From Candidatus Latescibacterota bacterium (GTDB lineage: Bacteria > Latescibacterota > UBA2968 > UBA8231): a stretch of 64,000 nucleotides of DNA. Of the stretch, positions 41,984 through 54,761 are shown piece by piece. The notes below the pieces were generated by a model. It made no database searches. It saw only the letters and a program-made list of their open reading frames with translations, and was not told the origin of the DNA. Every line of letters starts with the position of its first letter. Within the stretch, counting starts at the first letter, position 1. The stretch covers positions 6,080,001 through 6,144,000 of the forward strand of contig CBDETY010000003.1 in the NCBI GenBank assembly GCA_965243025.1, read 5' to 3'. The translations under genes were made by a program, and so were the position numbers.

Positions 41984-43951
41984 TTGTCAGGAGGTGTAGA
42001 AGACCGGCCGGCGTCCGGGGTTTCGCTGCGCGCCCTCGTCATCGGCGCCGCTCTCAGCCTGGCGATCGGCGTGGGAGAGCCCTTCGGTGCCTTCGTCATC
42101 ATGGGCACCCGCATGAGCGGGTTGAACGGTCCCGCCGCGTTCTTCCTGTTCTTCCTGTGGGTGGGTGTGGTCCAGGTCGTGTTGGGGCTCATTCACAGAA
42201 GGCTGGCCCTGGACAAGGGAGAGCTGCTGACCATCTACATCATGATGGTCGTCGCCACGGCGTTCTCGGGTGGCGAGCGCAACGGGTTCTGCCTGATGCT
42301 GTTGGGGTCGACTGCCGGGGTATCCTACCTGGCCAGTCCGGAAAACAACTGGGCGGAACGGGTCCATCCCTACGTGGCCAAGTGGATGGTTCCGCAGGAC
42401 GAGATGGGGATCCGGTGGTTTTTCGAGGGCATGCCGGAGGGCGAGTCGATCCCCTGGGGCATGTGGCTGCCGCCGCTGTTGTGGTGGTTGCTGTTCATGA
42501 CGGCGCTGTGGACGGCGAGCATCTGCGCGATGGTCATCCTTCGCCGCCAGTGGGTGGAACACGAACATCTCATCTATCCCATCACCAAGGTGCCGCTGGC
42601 CATGGTGCAACCGCCGCCGGGCGGTTCGCTGGTGGCGCCTTTCTTCAAGAGCGGCCTGATGTGGGCGGGTCTGTCGCTGTCGTTCGGCCGCGAGAGCCTC
42701 AACGCCCTGAATCACTACTTCCCCATCGTTCCCGTGGTTCCGACCCACTTCGGGCAACTCACGCTGATACCGCGATTCGCCAATGTAGGCTTTTCGCTGA
42801 ACCTGATGATCCTGGGGTTCGCCTATTTCCTCAAGGCGGACGTCATGCTCGGGATGTGGGTTTTCTACGTTCTGCGCCGCCTCGAGGAGGGTGTCCTGCA
42901 CCTGACGGGAGCCGGCATCGGGGAAGCGCTTTCCAACTACGGCGGCGGCGGTGGTGTCAGGGGGATCCTCGCGCACCAGAGCATAGGGGCGATGATCGCG
43001 CTGGTCCTCTTCGGACTGTGGATTTCCCGGGGACATCTGCGGAAGGTGTTCCGCAAGGCCTTCAGAGGGGACGACTCGGTGGACGATGCCGACGAAATCA
43101 TGCCCTACCGCACCGCCGTATGGGGGGTGATCCTCGGGGTGATCGGAATGAGCCTGTGGCTGTGGCGGGCGGGTCTGCCCCTGTGGGCGGGTCTGCTGTT
43201 TCTGTTCGGGGCGCTTGTGACCTTCGTCAGCCTGACGCGCATCATCGCCGAGGCGGGACTGCCGATGGTGTTTCCCCGCAACATCCCCCTGGACTTCGTG
43301 GTCTCCGGAATCGGGGTGCGCTACACGGGGCCGGCGGGGATGGCGGCCCTGGGTCCGACGGTGATATGGACGGAGTCCCTGGCGAGCACGATGATGGCCC
43401 ACACCGCCACCGGGTTGAAGCTGACCGGCGAGATCGCCCATCGCAGGCGCTGGCTGCTGCTGGCGCTGGCGATCGCCATTCTGGTCTCCGTAGTCAGCAC
43501 CTTCTGGATGTCGCTGTCGATCGCATACCGCGAGGGGGGCGTCAACGTAGCGCGTTCCGTCGGTTACCTCCCCGACTTCACCTGGGCGTACGTGGCGAGC
43601 CGGGTCGAGGAGAACGCGGGACCGAACGGGCTGGGTTGGCTCATCCGGTTGGCCGGGGGAGGGGTTATGACCGGTCTGCTTCTCATGCAGCGCCGGTTCC
43701 TGTGGTGGCCGTTGCACCCGCTGGGATTCGTGGTCAGCATGGACCGGGTGATGGACACGGCCTGGTTCCCCGTCTTCCTGGCCTGGACGCTCAAGACGGT
43801 CCTCTTGAAGTACGGCGGCCTCAAAGCGTACCAGGCGCTCATCCCCGTTTTCTACGGGTTGATACTGGGTCAGTTCGTCGCCGGGGGATTCTGGTTGATC
43901 GTCGACTTTTTCACCGGGATGAGGGGTAACGGACTGAGCATGATGTACTGA
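41984..43951 (+). CDS. DUF6785/DUF6784-type polytopic membrane protein (putative transporter), copy 1
   Basis: TTG start with GGAGGGA RBS; ELLTIYIMM, ILRRQWVEHEHLIYPI, WWPLHPLGF, LKYGG, GLILG. Confidence 0.85.
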   Translation: MSGGVEDRPASGVSLRALVIGAALSLAIGVGEPFGAFVIMGTRMSGLNGPAAFFLFFLWVGVVQVVLGLIHRRLALDKGELLTIYIMMVVATAFSGGERNGFCLMLLGSTAGVSYLASPENNWAERVHPYVAKWMVPQDEMGIRWFFEGMPEGESIPWGMWLPPLLWWLLFMTALWTASICAMVILRRQWVEHEHLIYPITKVPLAMVQPPPGGSLVAPFFKSGLMWAGLSLSFGRESLNALNHYFPIVPVVPTHFGQLTLIPRFANVGFSLNLMILGFAYFLKADVMLGMWVFYVLRRLEEGVLHLTGAGIGEALSNYGGGGGVRGILAHQSIGAMIALVLFGLWISRGHLRKVFRKAFRGDDSVDDADEIMPYRTAVWGVILGVIGMSLWLWRAGLPLWAGLLFLFGALVTFVSLTRIIAEAGLPMVFPRNIPLDFVVSGIGVRYTGPAGMAALGPTVIWTESLASTMMAHTATGLKLTGEIAHRRRWLLLALAIAILVSVVSTFWMSLSIAYREGGVNVARSVGYLPDFTWAYVASRVEENAGPNGLGWLIRLAGGGVMTGLLLMQRRFLWWPLHPLGFVVSMDRVMDTAWFPVFLAWTLKTVLLKYGGLKAYQALIPVFYGLILGQFVAGGFWLIVDFFTGMRGNGLSMMY

Positions 43952-44181: not shown

Positions 44182-44874
44182 ATGAGATTTGCGGTGACAG
44201 CCCTTCATTTCGGGCTCTGGGCTTTGCTTTCGTTTGGCTGCGGCAGCGATGTGGTCCACACCTCCACGCCGCCTTCTCCGGTCGACCAGGGACAGGGGGA
44301 GGAAGGAGAGGTTTTCATCACCGACCACACCGGAAAAGCATGGGACGTGACCCACGCTGTGGGGAAATACGGCATGGAGCCGTCAATGTTCGGGAACGGT
44401 CTGGGGCCATTTGCCATCAAACCGATAGTGAACGCCCGGATGCTGTCCCCCGGCGACCTGAACTACCCGATCGACAGCCAGGGCATGCTGGTGATCGGGA
44501 CGACCCTGAACGGTTTCACCCGCGCTTACCCCATCGAAATCCTGAGCCGGTTCGAAGTCGCCAACGAGCGCTTCGGGGAGGCGCACGTGGCCGTGGCCTA
44601 CTGACCGCTGGTCGACCTGGCTGCCGTGTACAGCCGAGAAATCGACGGAGAGATCCTGACCCTGAGCGCCAGTGGATGGACCTATCGATCCACGTTCGTG
44701 CTGTACGACTACGAGACCGAAAGCCTGTGGTACCACCTGCCCGGCGAGGATGGCCTGACCTGTATCGGCGGCGCCTACGCCGACCGGAAGCTGACGGAAC
44801 TCCACTCCGTCCTCACCCGCTGGAACCTCTGGAAAGCGGAGTTTCCGGATTCAAGGGTTCTCACGATCCCTTAG
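44182..44874 (+). CDS. DUF3179-family lipoprotein, probable selenoprotein (UGA at 44602-44604 = Sec141)
   Basis: LSFGC lipobox; RAYPI.IL...EVAN, VAY*PLV at the family Y-C-P-L site, continuing in frame to YSREIDG..SGW.Y....LYD.ETESLW; hairpin just after UGA. Confidence 0.8.
44611..44646 (+). promoter_or_regulatory. Bacterial SECIS-like stem-loop
   Basis: GTCGA/TCGAC lower stem, GGCTG/CAGCC upper stem, G-containing loop CCGTGTA starting about 20 nt after UGA. Confidence 0.65.
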
Positions 44875-45045: not shown

Positions 45046-46704
45046 ATGAAATGTCCGAAACGGCTCCTGCCCTGTGCGGTGTTGCCGGTGTTGGGGTTGG
45101 CCGGCTGTGACGACAGAAGCCCCACGCAATCCGGCTCAGGCTCCACGGTCCTGGAGGGCGATTTTTCCGTCCGTTCCCAGGAGGACCTGGACCTCCTCGC
45201 GGCTCTTGGGGGGGATTCGTTCGGCATCGCCGGCGATCTCTCGGTCGAGGATTCTCCTTTCACCACGCTCGAGGCCCTCGAGAATCTCACCGGCATAGGC
45301 GGGAACCTGTCCATAGGCAGCTTCGGCGCCGGCAACGCGGAGCTGACCAGTCTGGCAGGTCTCGGGAATCTCACCCGCATCGGCGGGTACCTGTCCATAT
45401 TCGGCAACGTCTCCCTGACCAGCCTGGCGGGGCTGGAGGGTGTCACCGGCATCGGCGGGGGTTTGTTCATCAGGAACACTTCCCTGACCAGCCTGTCAGG
45501 GCTCGAAAACGTCTCCGGCATCGGCGGGAGGGTGAAGGTCGTCAACAACGATGCCCTGACCAGCCTGTCGGGGCTCGACAATCTCACCCGCATCGGCGGG
45601 TACCTGTCCATCGTCGGCAATGATTCCCTGACCAGCCTGACAGGGCTCGGAAACCTCACCAGCTTCGAGGGGGACCTGATTGTCAACGACAACCCGGCGC
45701 TTACCAGCCTGGCGGGGCTGGAAAAGATCACGAGCATCGACGGGGACGCGTTTGACCGGGAATCCCGGACGGGTCCGGGCGTGTCGATCCTTGACAACGA
45801 TGCACTTGCCAGCCTGTCGGGGCTCGACAATCTCACCCGCATCGGCGGGGACTTGTGCATCGGCAAGGTGCGCGAGGGCAACCCTGCGTTGACCAGCCTG
45901 TCGGGGCTCGACAACCTCGCCGACGTCGGCGGGAGTTTGACCATCTCCCACAACCCCGCACTGGCCAGCCTGTCGGGGCTCGGGAATCTCGCCCGCATCG
46001 GCGGAGTCCTGTCCGTGTTCAGCAGCGCCGCCCTGACCGACCTGTCAGGGCTCGAGAACCTCGCCGGCATCGGTGGCGTCTGGCTTACCGGCAATCCGGC
46101 GCTGACCAGCCTGTCAGGGCTCGAGACGCTCACCAGCGTCGGCGGATTCCTGTCTCTGGCCAACAACTCCGCCCTGAGCAGCCTGACGGGACTCGACAAT
46201 ATCACCGGCATCGACGGGATGCTGCAGATACTGCACAACGACGCGCTGACCGGCCTGGCACCGCTCGGGAACGTCACCCGGGTCGGGGGCGATCTGAAAG
46301 TCGGCGGCAATCACCTGCTGGCCAACCTGGCAGGGTTCGAGAGCGTCACCGGCATCGGCGGGGACCTGTCCATCTGGTACACCGGCCTGACGAGCCTGGC
46401 AGGGCTCGGGAACCTCGCCACCATCGGCGCGGACCTGTCGATCGGCGGCAATGACGCCCTGGTCAGCCTGGCAGGGCTCGAAAGTCTCACCGACATTGGC
46501 GGGAGTCTCGCAATCGGCGACCGCCGTACCGGCAACACCGCCCTCGCCAGCCTGGCAGGCCTCGAGAATCTCACCCGCATCGGCGGCGACTTGTCCATCC
46601 ACGGCAATGGAGCGCTGACCGATTCGTCGGCCCGGGCCTTCGCCGACAGACTGGTGGCAAGCGGGTTCACGGGCAGCGTGACGATCAGCGGCAATCAGCG
46701 ATGA
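45046..46704 (+). CDS. Lipoprotein with about 18 receptor L-domain/leucine-rich repeats
   Basis: LAGC lipobox; ~25-aa repeat LTSLxGLxNLTxIGGxLxIxxNxA, also repetitive at the DNA level. Confidence 0.9.
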   Translation: MKCPKRLLPCAVLPVLGLAGCDDRSPTQSGSGSTVLEGDFSVRSQEDLDLLAALGGDSFGIAGDLSVEDSPFTTLEALENLTGIGGNLSIGSFGAGNAELTSLAGLGNLTRIGGYLSIFGNVSLTSLAGLEGVTGIGGGLFIRNTSLTSLSGLENVSGIGGRVKVVNNDALTSLSGLDNLTRIGGYLSIVGNDSLTSLTGLGNLTSFEGDLIVNDNPALTSLAGLEKITSIDGDAFDRESRTGPGVSILDNDALASLSGLDNLTRIGGDLCIGKVREGNPALTSLSGLDNLADVGGSLTISHNPALASLSGLGNLARIGGVLSVFSSAALTDLSGLENLAGIGGVWLTGNPALTSLSGLETLTSVGGFLSLANNSALSSLTGLDNITGIDGMLQILHNDALTGLAPLGNVTRVGGDLKVGGNHLLANLAGFESVTGIGGDLSIWYTGLTSLAGLGNLATIGADLSIGGNDALVSLAGLESLTDIGGSLAIGDRRTGNTALASLAGLENLTRIGGDLSIHGNGALTDSSARAFADRLVASGFTGSVTISGNQR

Positions 46705-52570: not shown

Positions 52571-52797
52571 CTAGTGTCCCGTCGCAGAGATAGATTGACA
52601 AAATTGGGATGCCGAGGCGCCCGGCTCACAAGGCGCCTGAGCGAGTCGTACCGAGGGCGTACGGGGAGCGAAGGCAACGCCGTGAGCCGGGATTGAGGGG
52701 AAAAATCGCACCGGATGAGGGTTTCATAAAACCGCGATTTTTCCCCTCAAATGGATCGGCGTCCCGATGTCGAGATATTTCTGCGACGGGACACTAG
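52571..52797 (+). mobile_element. 227-bp MITE-like element with 22-bp terminal inverted repeats (CTAG ends)
   Basis: CTAGTGTCCCGTCGCAGAGATA / TATTTCTGCGACGGGACACTAG (21/22 match); internal perfect 10-bp and 17-bp stems; related copies at 58030 and 9086. Confidence 0.8.
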
Positions 52798-54761
52798 AAA
52801 TCCATCGCTATTTGATTGCCCGTCATCCCGGTGAAATAGTCCACTATGAGCCAGAATCCCCCGGCGACGAACTGGCCCAGGATCAACCCGTAGAAAAGGG
52901 GGATGAGCGAGCGGTACCCTCTGAGGCCGCCATACTTCAGAAGGACCGACTTGATCGACCACGCCACGAAGACCGGAAACCAGGCCGTGTCCATAACCCT
53001 GTCCATGCTGACCACGAAACCGAGAGGATGCAACGGCCACCACAGAAAGCGGCGCTGCAGGATCAGCAGGCCAGCCATCACTCCCCCTCCGGTCAGCCGG
53101 ATGAGCCAGCCCAGCCCGTTCGGTCCCGCGTTCTCGTCGATCCTGCGCCCCACGTACTCCCAGGTGTACTGGGGCAGATAGCGCGAGGGACCATCCACAT
53201 TGATGCTCCCCTCCCGGTAGGCTATCGACATCGACATCCAGAACGTGCTGACCGCGGAAACCCCGATGGCGATGGCGATCGCCAGCAGCAACCAGCGCTT
53301 GCGATGCGCGATCTCCCCGGTCAGCTTCAGTCCCGTGGCGGTATGCGCCATCATCGTGCTCGCCAGGGATTCCGTCCAGATCACCGTCGGACCCAGCGCC
53401 GCTATCCCGGCAGGCCCTATGAACCGCGCCCCGATCCCGGAGATCACGAAGTCCAGGGGGATATTGCGGGGAAACACCATCGGCAATCCCGCCTCGGCGA
53501 TGATGCGCGTCAGGCTGATGAAGGTCACGAGCGCCCCGAACAGGAACAGCGGCCCCACCCACAGGGGGAGGCCCGCCCGCCACAGCCAAACGCACATCCA
53601 GGCCACTCCGAGGATCACCCCCCAGACGGCGGTGCGGTAGGACATGATCTCGTCGGAATCGTCCACCGACGGGTCCCCCCTGAACGCCTTGCGGAACACC
53701 TCCCGCAGGTGCCCCCGGGCGATCCAGAGCCCGAAGAGCACCAGGGAGATCATCGCACCTATGCTCTGATGCGCCAGCAACCCGGTTACGCCGCCGCCGC
53801 CGCCATAGTTGGAAAGGGATTCCCCGATGCCCTGCCCCGTGAAGGTCAGCACACCCTCCTCCAGGCGCCGCAGCAGAGTGAATACCCACATCCCCAACAT
53901 CACGTCCGGTTTGAGGAAATACGCAAACCCCAGGATCATCAGGTTCAGCGAGAAGCCCGCACTCGCGGCGCCCCGCAACAGGGTCACGTGCCCGAGGTGT
54001 CTCGGAACCACGGGAACGAAGGGGTAGTAATGGTTCAGGGCATTCAGGCTCTCGCGGCCGAACGTCAGCAGCAGTCCCACCCACATCAGGGGGCTCCTGA
54101 AGAAAGGCGCCACCAGCGAACCGCCGGATGGCGGCTCTGCCATCGCCAGGGGGACCTTGGTGATCGGGTAGATCAGATGTTCGTGCTCGACCCACTGGCG
54201 GCGGAGAATCACCATCGTGCAAATGCTCGTCATCCACAACGCGGTCATGAACACGAACCACCAGAACAGCGGCGGCAACCAGACACCCCAGGGAATGGAC
54301 TCGCCAGCCGGCAGCCCTTCGAAGAACCAACGGATACCCGTCTCGTCGCGAGGGACCATCCAGTCCGCCACGTAGGGATGGACCCGATCCGCCCAGCCGT
54401 TCTCCGGCGTCGCCAGGTAAGACACCCCGGCAGCGGACCCCAGCAGCATGAAGCAGAATCCGTTGCGCTCTCCCCCCGAGAAAGCCGTGGCGACGACCAT
54501 CATGATGTAAATGGTCAACAGCTCCCCCTTGCCCAGGACCAGCCTGCGGTGAATGACCCCCAACAGTACCTGGACAACGCCCACCCACAGGAAGAACAGG
54601 AAGAAGGCGGCAGGGCCGTTCAACGAGCTCAGATGGCTGCCCATGACGACACGCGCGCCGTAGGGCTCGCCCACACCGATCAACAGACTCAGCCCCGCGC
54701 CGATGACCAGCGAGCGCGGCGTCACCCCCGGCGCCGACCGCTTCTGTGTTCCCCCTGACAA
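52794..54761 (-). CDS. DUF6785/DUF6784-type polytopic membrane protein, copy 2
   Basis: Same length (655 aa), same TTG start and long identical blocks with 41984-43951. Confidence 0.85.
   Translation of the reverse strand: MSGGTQKRSAPGVTPRSLVIGAGLSLLIGVGEPYGARVVMGSHLSSLNGPAAFFLFFLWVGVVQVLLGVIHRRLVLGKGELLTIYIMMVVATAFSGGERNGFCFMLLGSAAGVSYLATPENGWADRVHPYVADWMVPRDETGIRWFFEGLPAGESIPWGVWLPPLFWWFVFMTALWMTSICTMVILRRQWVEHEHLIYPITKVPLAMAEPPSGGSLVAPFFRSPLMWVGLLLTFGRESLNALNHYYPFVPVVPRHLGHVTLLRGAASAGFSLNLMILGFAYFLKPDVMLGMWVFTLLRRLEEGVLTFTGQGIGESLSNYGGGGGVTGLLAHQSIGAMISLVLFGLWIARGHLREVFRKAFRGDPSVDDSDEIMSYRTAVWGVILGVAWMCVWLWRAGLPLWVGPLFLFGALVTFISLTRIIAEAGLPMVFPRNIPLDFVISGIGARFIGPAGIAALGPTVIWTESLASTMMAHTATGLKLTGEIAHRKRWLLLAIAIAIGVSAVSTFWMSMSIAYREGSINVDGPSRYLPQYTWEYVGRRIDENAGPNGLGWLIRLTGGGVMAGLLILQRRFLWWPLHPLGFVVSMDRVMDTAWFPVFVAWSIKSVLLKYGGLRGYRSLIPLFYGLILGQFVAGGFWLIVDYFTGMTGNQIAMDF

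Follow-up and report, generated by a model that had tools for sequence, protein, structure and literature searches.

The window, a stretch of 64,000 nucleotides from the genome of a Candidatus Latescibacterota bacterium, carries a forward-strand reading frame of 230 residues (44182-44874) that translation shows to contain one in-frame TGA, at 44602-44604. This codon is residue 141 (U141) and stands in the context AHVAVAY-U-PLVDLAAVYSREIDG. The gene lies between those of a DUF6785 membrane protein and a receptor-L protein, and FG-GAP proteins are also encoded nearby. The features of the locus are:

44182..44874, + strand: gene of a short (single-repeat) DUF3179 protein, almost certainly a selenoprotein; 230 aa, stop codon TAG
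44182..44241, + strand: predicted lipoprotein signal peptide, a hydrophobic stretch ending at Cys20 (L-S-F-G-C, a non-canonical lipobox)
44314..44427, + strand: N-terminal module characteristic of the short forms, with an I-x-D-x-x-G-x-x-W-D hairpin, a helix and a G-L-G-P loop, from alignments
44431..44865, + strand: one DUF3179 repeat, residues 84-228, equivalent to PF11376 positions 9-148 of 292
44509..44823, + strand: region matching Rieske domains in the predicted structure, residues 110-214, with no C-x-H or C-x-x-H
44602..44604, + strand: in-frame TGA, almost certainly selenocysteine 141 (U-P-L-V), from translation, homologue comparison and run contigs
44611..44646, + strand: two-tier hairpin of the earlier note, which folds in the source genome; lower tier unconserved in that register
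44619..44635, + strand: conserved SECIS upper stem-loop, 5 bp, beginning 15 nt past the TGA
44761..44763, + strand: Cys194 (L-T-C-I-x-G), a second Cys, variable among selenocysteine forms, from alignments

Two open reading frames, one ending at 44604 and the other starting at 44626, had been described in the earlier note as one frame split by a single TGA, and they were found to be so. The closest homologues begin 140-143 codons upstream of the TGA, and GC content by codon position is equal on either side of it (0.61/0.45/0.79 versus 0.60/0.46/0.80). Contigs of the public runs X3, X7 and X10 cross 44602-44604 unchanged, so the TGA is not an assembly error; X3 is possibly the source of this DNA, and two of the runs with contigs across the codon are labelled sponge metagenomes. 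Contigs of the RNA run X20 cover the downstream half with 14 differences and do not thereby show transcription. A search around the gene for a sigma-70 promoter or a terminator gave none. The upstream DUF6785/DUF6784 membrane protein (41984-43951, +) is 83-86% identical to its copy in a congener and has paralogues nearby, at G000:C3:6132797-6134761 (window 52797-54761, minus strand) and 6016173-6017621, while 45046-46704 (+) encodes a 552-aa probable lipoprotein of receptor-L repeats that is syntenic with the gene in four loci.

The product is almost certainly a 230-aa selenoprotein in which the TGA is read as selenocysteine (Sec), since a single frame, a conserved in-frame TGA, a covarying hairpin and a full Sec machinery occur together. 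The search for selA, selB, selC and selD that had been proposed as a check found tRNA-Sec, SelA, SelB and SelD in the source genome, all above curated cut-offs, and this SelD carries an in-frame TGA of its own. Among 41 related genomes, all 31 matches (46-100% identity, in 16 genomes including the source) keep the TGA, these relatives being kin and the counts not independent. A wider search of the phylum gave matches in 17 of 151 genomes, all in the source genome's taxonomic family, with TGA in 32/32 matches. The metagenome set, which comprises the best 80 of 480 matches and is biased to close relatives, holds 79 distinct sites in 78 loci, 77 with TGA and two with TGT. A Candidatus Latescibacterota MAG (L017), a close relative at 63% identity, was excluded from the counts as a probable duplicate. 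These matches and sites keep TGA or Cys, as had been asked of the orthologues, and the codon does align to Cys, which stands here in 10 database orthologues and in a TGT paralogue read at the DNA level in the metagenome contig L080. The machinery also follows the gene: SelA was found in 16/17 relatives with a TGA copy, and five of the six genomes that lack SelA lack a TGA copy too, the sixth (G005, 81% complete in 810 contigs) having two TGA copies and no SelA match. Two of the 31 matches additionally hold a TAG and several copies appear frameshifted, which indicates that some copies are decaying.

Two other readings of the codon concern its translation. That the TGA is a true stop, so that the locus is a pseudogene or two separate small genes, could appeal to the 84 database homologues, 64 of which terminate here (Cys stands at the site in 10, Trp in 6 and Thr in 1; the other 3 are downstream pieces), and to a GTG at 44626 that could begin an 82-aa ORF. 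The comparative data refute this reading, and we give it next to no weight: TAA or TAG is never found at the site in close homologues from related genomes, metagenome sites or phylum genomes, the codon lies in the middle of a domain, and the SECIS hairpin covaries. Identity downstream of the TGA is at least as high as upstream, and the downstream half is under purifying selection, with dN/dS of 0.13-0.77 in 24/24 comparisons and values below 1 for the upstream half in 22/22 computable comparisons, five frameshifted or incomplete copies being excluded. The truncated entries agree with the expectation that standard gene callers would split the gene, and, as most database entries for short DUF3179 proteins stop at the Sec position, the size of this subfamily is underestimated. 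An alternative genetic code, in which TGA is read as Trp or Gly, is scarcely credible. It would account for the six database proteins with Trp here, but these are most likely code-4 gene calls; TGA terminates ordinary genes, for example the upstream DUF6785 gene at 43949-43951, the sole tRNA with a UCA anticodon is tRNA-Sec, and both non-TGA sites at the DNA level (among the best 80 of 480 metagenome matches) are TGT.

The hairpin that follows the Sec codon was conserved in part. The two-tier structure at 44611-44646 folds as the earlier note stated (-12.8 kcal/mol, z -2.84, equalled by 2/200 shuffles), and longer windows are no better than shuffles (60-nt z -1.1, 100-nt z -0.7). Its upper tier, with pairs 44619-44623/44631-44635 and a loop of 7 nt, or of 5 nt (CGUGU) if a C-A pair closes it, covaries among homologues: both-side changes occur in four of the six pairs tested, a result reached by 0/500 shuffles in an alignment of 35 aligned TGA sites (34 distinct; 35 of 36 TGA sites, L063 (+) being omitted), although this shuffle test is inflated by the relatedness of the sequences. 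RNAalifold recovers the same upper stem. The lower tier, in contrast, has both-side changes in 0/5 pairs and only 64% of its cells are paired. Codons +6..+10 show a synonymous identity of 0.95, versus 0.52 at 98 other positions. Among the best 80 of 480 metagenome matches, the loop CGTGT is kept in 76/76 short TGA sites and all five pairs in 71, and of 77 TGA sites 49 have G-C and 22 have A-U at pair 19-33. On contig L080 the TGA copy retains the stem (5/5 pairs), whereas the TGT paralogue, with a near-identical peptide, has lost it (2/5, loop altered). The spacing had been called SECIS-like, and the measured 19-20 nt lies inside the 16-37 nt of the bSECIS consensus as given in the accessible portion of PMC13188914; the other values set there (upper stem 4-16 bp, loop 3-9 nt, MFE <= -7.5 kcal/mol) also accommodate the 5 bp, the loop of 5-7 nt and the -7.7 kcal/mol found here. 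That consensus also asks for a G in the first two loop positions. Here the G is second when a closing C-A pair is counted, and third in a strict Watson-Crick fold. This loop-closing pair is C-A in most members and U-A in 6/77 metagenome sites (best 80 of 480 matches) and 5/34 homologues. A genome-wide pattern for the exact hairpin gave seven sites, of which only 44619-44635 looks like part of a real gene. Sec DUF3179 forms outside the short clade (L063 (-), L064, L065, L069 and L070; motifs U-P-M-V, U-P-L-A, U-P-I-N and U-P-L-C) share the CGTGT loop and its spacing; four of them retain the stem, which is broken in L063.

The protein matches PF11376 (DUF3179) over residues 84-228 (E 2.9e-32, 112.7 bits against a cut-off of 27), which is one repeat of the profile, with the TGA in mid-domain; NCBIfam gave no match for it. 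It is probably an exported lipoprotein, as the earlier note had proposed, and lipidated at Cys20, judging by inspection from a hydrophobic stretch and a conserved Cys20 with a non-canonical residue at -3. In 24/24 aligned short forms a Cys is found 114-139 residues ahead of Sec, the script having searched for such a Cys. By profile comparison the N-terminal module resembles parts of the long forms only weakly; its derivation as a permuted piece of repeat 2 is not claimed (13 columns, probability 25%).

Long DUF3179 proteins consist of two homologous repeats (E 2e-41), and most of them (54/67) have C-x-x-C in the first; the long paralogue of the source genome has C-P-L-T. A quick tree (90 rows, 133 columns) joins the short single-repeat forms in a single clade with SH-aLRT 93. 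Y-C-P-L-C had been taken as the usual DUF3179 motif; its C-x-x-C is usual in the long proteins but absent from 10/10 Cys orthologues of the short subfamily. In the same way, U-P-L-V had been considered an unusual variant, but Val at +3 is standard in the short subfamily (68/76 short TGA sites among the best 80 of 480 metagenome matches, and Cys in 0/76). The statement that a resolving Cys is absent is right for +3, which is Val144, but overlooked the second Cys, Cys194. In nine of 23 distant short representatives the site has neither Cys nor Sec but S, D, Q, E, R or W, so that catalysis at this residue is not required by the whole subfamily. A set of short forms (P0002, P0090-P0093, P0095, P0097, P0107 and P0115) carries T, S, D, Q, E or R in place of Sec; most of them keep the Cys194 equivalent, and they are possibly non-redox or differently catalytic members.

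The existence of Sec variants of DUF3179, also stated in the earlier note, is on record: the available parts of two reviews (PMC9312934 and PMC13188914) list them as UxxC/T and cite PMC1976440, the accessible text of which does not use the DUF name. The RefSeq name in use is 'DUF3179 domain-containing (seleno)protein'. A short Y-U-P-L-V protein, MDJ0667903.1, is among the previously reported selenoprotein representatives in deep-Sep Table S1 (PMC12013277), and a second U-P-L-V DUF3179 entry appears in Data S1 of that paper; on the strength of these tables, U-P-L-V is not novel. By eye, MDJ0667903.1 resembles the protein described here in its single repeat, N-terminal D-x-T-G-x-x-W-D module, Y-U-P-L-V-D-L and about 90 residues after Sec, but in its tabulated form it has no lipoprotein signal and no Cys194 equivalent and comes from a different organism; the part of PMC12013277 that holds its entry gives no function, fold or SECIS analysis. 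The long two-repeat selenoproteins such as MDJ0986319.1 share the homologous repeat and the Sec/Cys at the same position, and differ from the present protein, which has one repeat, Val144 at +3 in place of UxxC/T, an extra N-terminal module and a place in the separate clade of the short forms. As a selenoprotein gene it is unexceptional: both its family and its motif are already catalogued.

The only new lead from the gene is a predicted one, a Rieske-like shape without an iron-sulfur cluster. The structural alignment of the model with Rieske domains covers 91 residues (model 71-174 versus chain 1-94) and is nearly gap-free. Compared with Rieske [2Fe-2S] domains (ferredoxins 3dqy, 1vm9 and 3gce, and the NirD-like small subunit 3c0d), identity is 3-16%, and the present protein, a predicted lipoprotein, differs from them in having no cluster ligands: C-x-H and C-x-x-H ligand boxes are absent from the sequence and the family alignment, and no His is conserved. 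NirD proteins can lack the Fe-S cluster. Searches of PDB sequences with the single sequence and with a profile gave no match, Foldseek against PDB gave nothing at E <= 0.001, and 36 members scanned against Pfam at E 10 matched no Rieske family. A search of the ESM Atlas with the TGT orthologue in L080 returned DUF3179 clusters only and no structure. The first profile comparison with Rieske domains scored 13.3, no better than shuffles, and a re-cut of the same six Rieske sequences scored 22.8 (30 shuffles, maximum 15.1) and, for repeat 2 only, 28.4; with a Rieske profile as thin as six sequences, these scores lend weak support. On balance, we lean modestly to the view that the DUF3179 repeats share a cluster-less Rieske fold, and if they do, a family of thousands would acquire a first structural relative, together with an active-site position open to testing. 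In BFVD, the 236-aa Indivirus ILV1 protein A0A1V0SD44 matches the model (E 1.7e-6, TM 0.61, 16% identity), which suggests a DUF3179-like fold in a giant virus.

Within the window, no thiol-redox partner gene was found near the gene. Across 25 genome loci, where ancestry is much shared and the counts are raw ones, ArsS (TIGR04167, above cut-off) occurs in 8 (7 with short copies), a DUF255/DsbD-N thioredoxin protein in 8, DUF6785 in 8 and a barrel-like gene in 9. ArsS was also found in 6/78 metagenome loci (best 80 of 480 matches), and a TlpA-like protein adjoins two long Sec forms. In the source genome, genes for ArsS, DUF255 and FAD/Fe-S proteins lie around the long C-P-L-T paralogue, about 700 kb from the window copy; that locus (G000:C3:5409973-5420009, L073) encodes a DUF255 thioredoxin protein, ArsS, an FAD oxidoreductase, a polyferredoxin membrane protein, the long DUF3179 and an FAD/Fe-S membrane protein.

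The mechanism that we put forward, tentatively and with doubts slightly outweighing the grounds for it, is that of a redox protein with a single selenol, lipid-anchored and acting outside the cytoplasm. According to established Sec biology, SelB-tRNA-Sec would bind the hairpin and insert Sec141, after which the protein would be exported and lipidated at Cys20. The predicted Rieske-like beta scaffold, with no Fe-S cluster, would present Sec on a hairpin turn, where the selenolate could attack an oxidised or electrophilic substrate. As no Cys is present at +3, re-reduction may be carried out by a separate periplasmic thioredoxin-like protein, by analogy with 1-Cys redox enzymes, a step suggested by the redox neighbours, namely the DUF255/DsbD-N and TlpA-like genes. 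The residues other than Cys and Sec that occupy the site in distant short representatives weigh against this mechanism, as does the absence of a thiol-redox partner gene nearby in the window.

A different function for the lone selenol would be to bind or handle a soft metalloid at the cell surface, likeliest trivalent arsenic, as an accessory of the arsenosugar (ArsS) gene cluster, with the barrel-like neighbour perhaps serving as a channel. We regard this as unlikely, though worth keeping in view. It draws on the ArsS counts above, on TIGR04169 and TIGR04283 genes that are present too, on the ArsS that adjoins the long paralogue, and on 29 de-duplicated metagenome loci of at least 3.5 kb, where ArsS or a TIGR04282-like glycosyltransferase occurs in 6, including AT-rich loci unlike the source family, and the barrel-like gene adjoins the gene in 8. 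However, such genes are missing from most loci and far from the window copy, seven of the genome loci represent a single synteny block inherited within one family, and ArsS is cytoplasmic whereas the short DUF3179 protein is predicted to be exported. Arsenic is usually bound by two or three thiols, which also counts against a lone selenol. The ArsS-cluster link nevertheless offers a first substrate class to try for DUF3179. The broader proposal that DUF3179 is a cluster-less Rieske-fold lineage with a Cys/Sec hairpin, whose short lipoprotein would serve Se-dependent, ArsS-linked arsenic handling at the surface of marine bacteria, is rather improbable.

Cys194, 53 residues downstream, might instead be the resolving Cys and form a Se-S bond with Sec141, within the chain or across a dimer. 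It is present in 45/72 metagenome (best 80 of 480 matches) and 11/30 genome short Sec forms and in 25/31 rows of alignment A4, but many Sec forms have Gly, Ser or Ala instead, and the retention of this Cys in most short forms without Cys or Sec at 141 means that it does not track Sec. The probable Rieske register would also place the two residues on different sub-domains, and we hold a Sec141-Cys194 pair to be rather improbable. A degenerate Rieske ligand site at Sec141, binding a metal or an Fe-S cluster, is more improbable still. The profile alignment that scored 22.8 does put Sec/Cys on the first Rieske ligand Cys, and the short-form and repeat-1 profiles take the same register with no significance (E 0.06 and 0.04), yet the missing ligand motifs and conserved His oppose it, and the best profile alignment (28.4) and the structural ranges speak for a register that places Sec on an earlier hairpin. 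The probability left after these readings falls to non-catalytic roles.

The exported barrel-like protein of about 300 aa is the commonest neighbour (9/25 genome loci and 17/78 metagenome loci, best 80 of 480 matches). It has no Pfam family, one distant member being weakly PF13557, and is absent from the window locus; examples are L049:7681-8595 (-) and L050:5278-6222 (+), with a homologue at G000:C3:3748486-3749157. Congeners have a second copy at the same place, and some also have the barrel-like gene. Tandem arrays of two or three divergent Sec copies occur in L057, L058, L026, L062, L048 and L110, those in L057, L058 and L062 being divergent from a long C-P-L-T DUF3179. Two long DUF3179 forms that were checked have a FlgD-like C-terminal tail, and P0094 (1004 aa) appears by eye to be a fusion of a TlpA-like thioredoxin with two long DUF3179 units.
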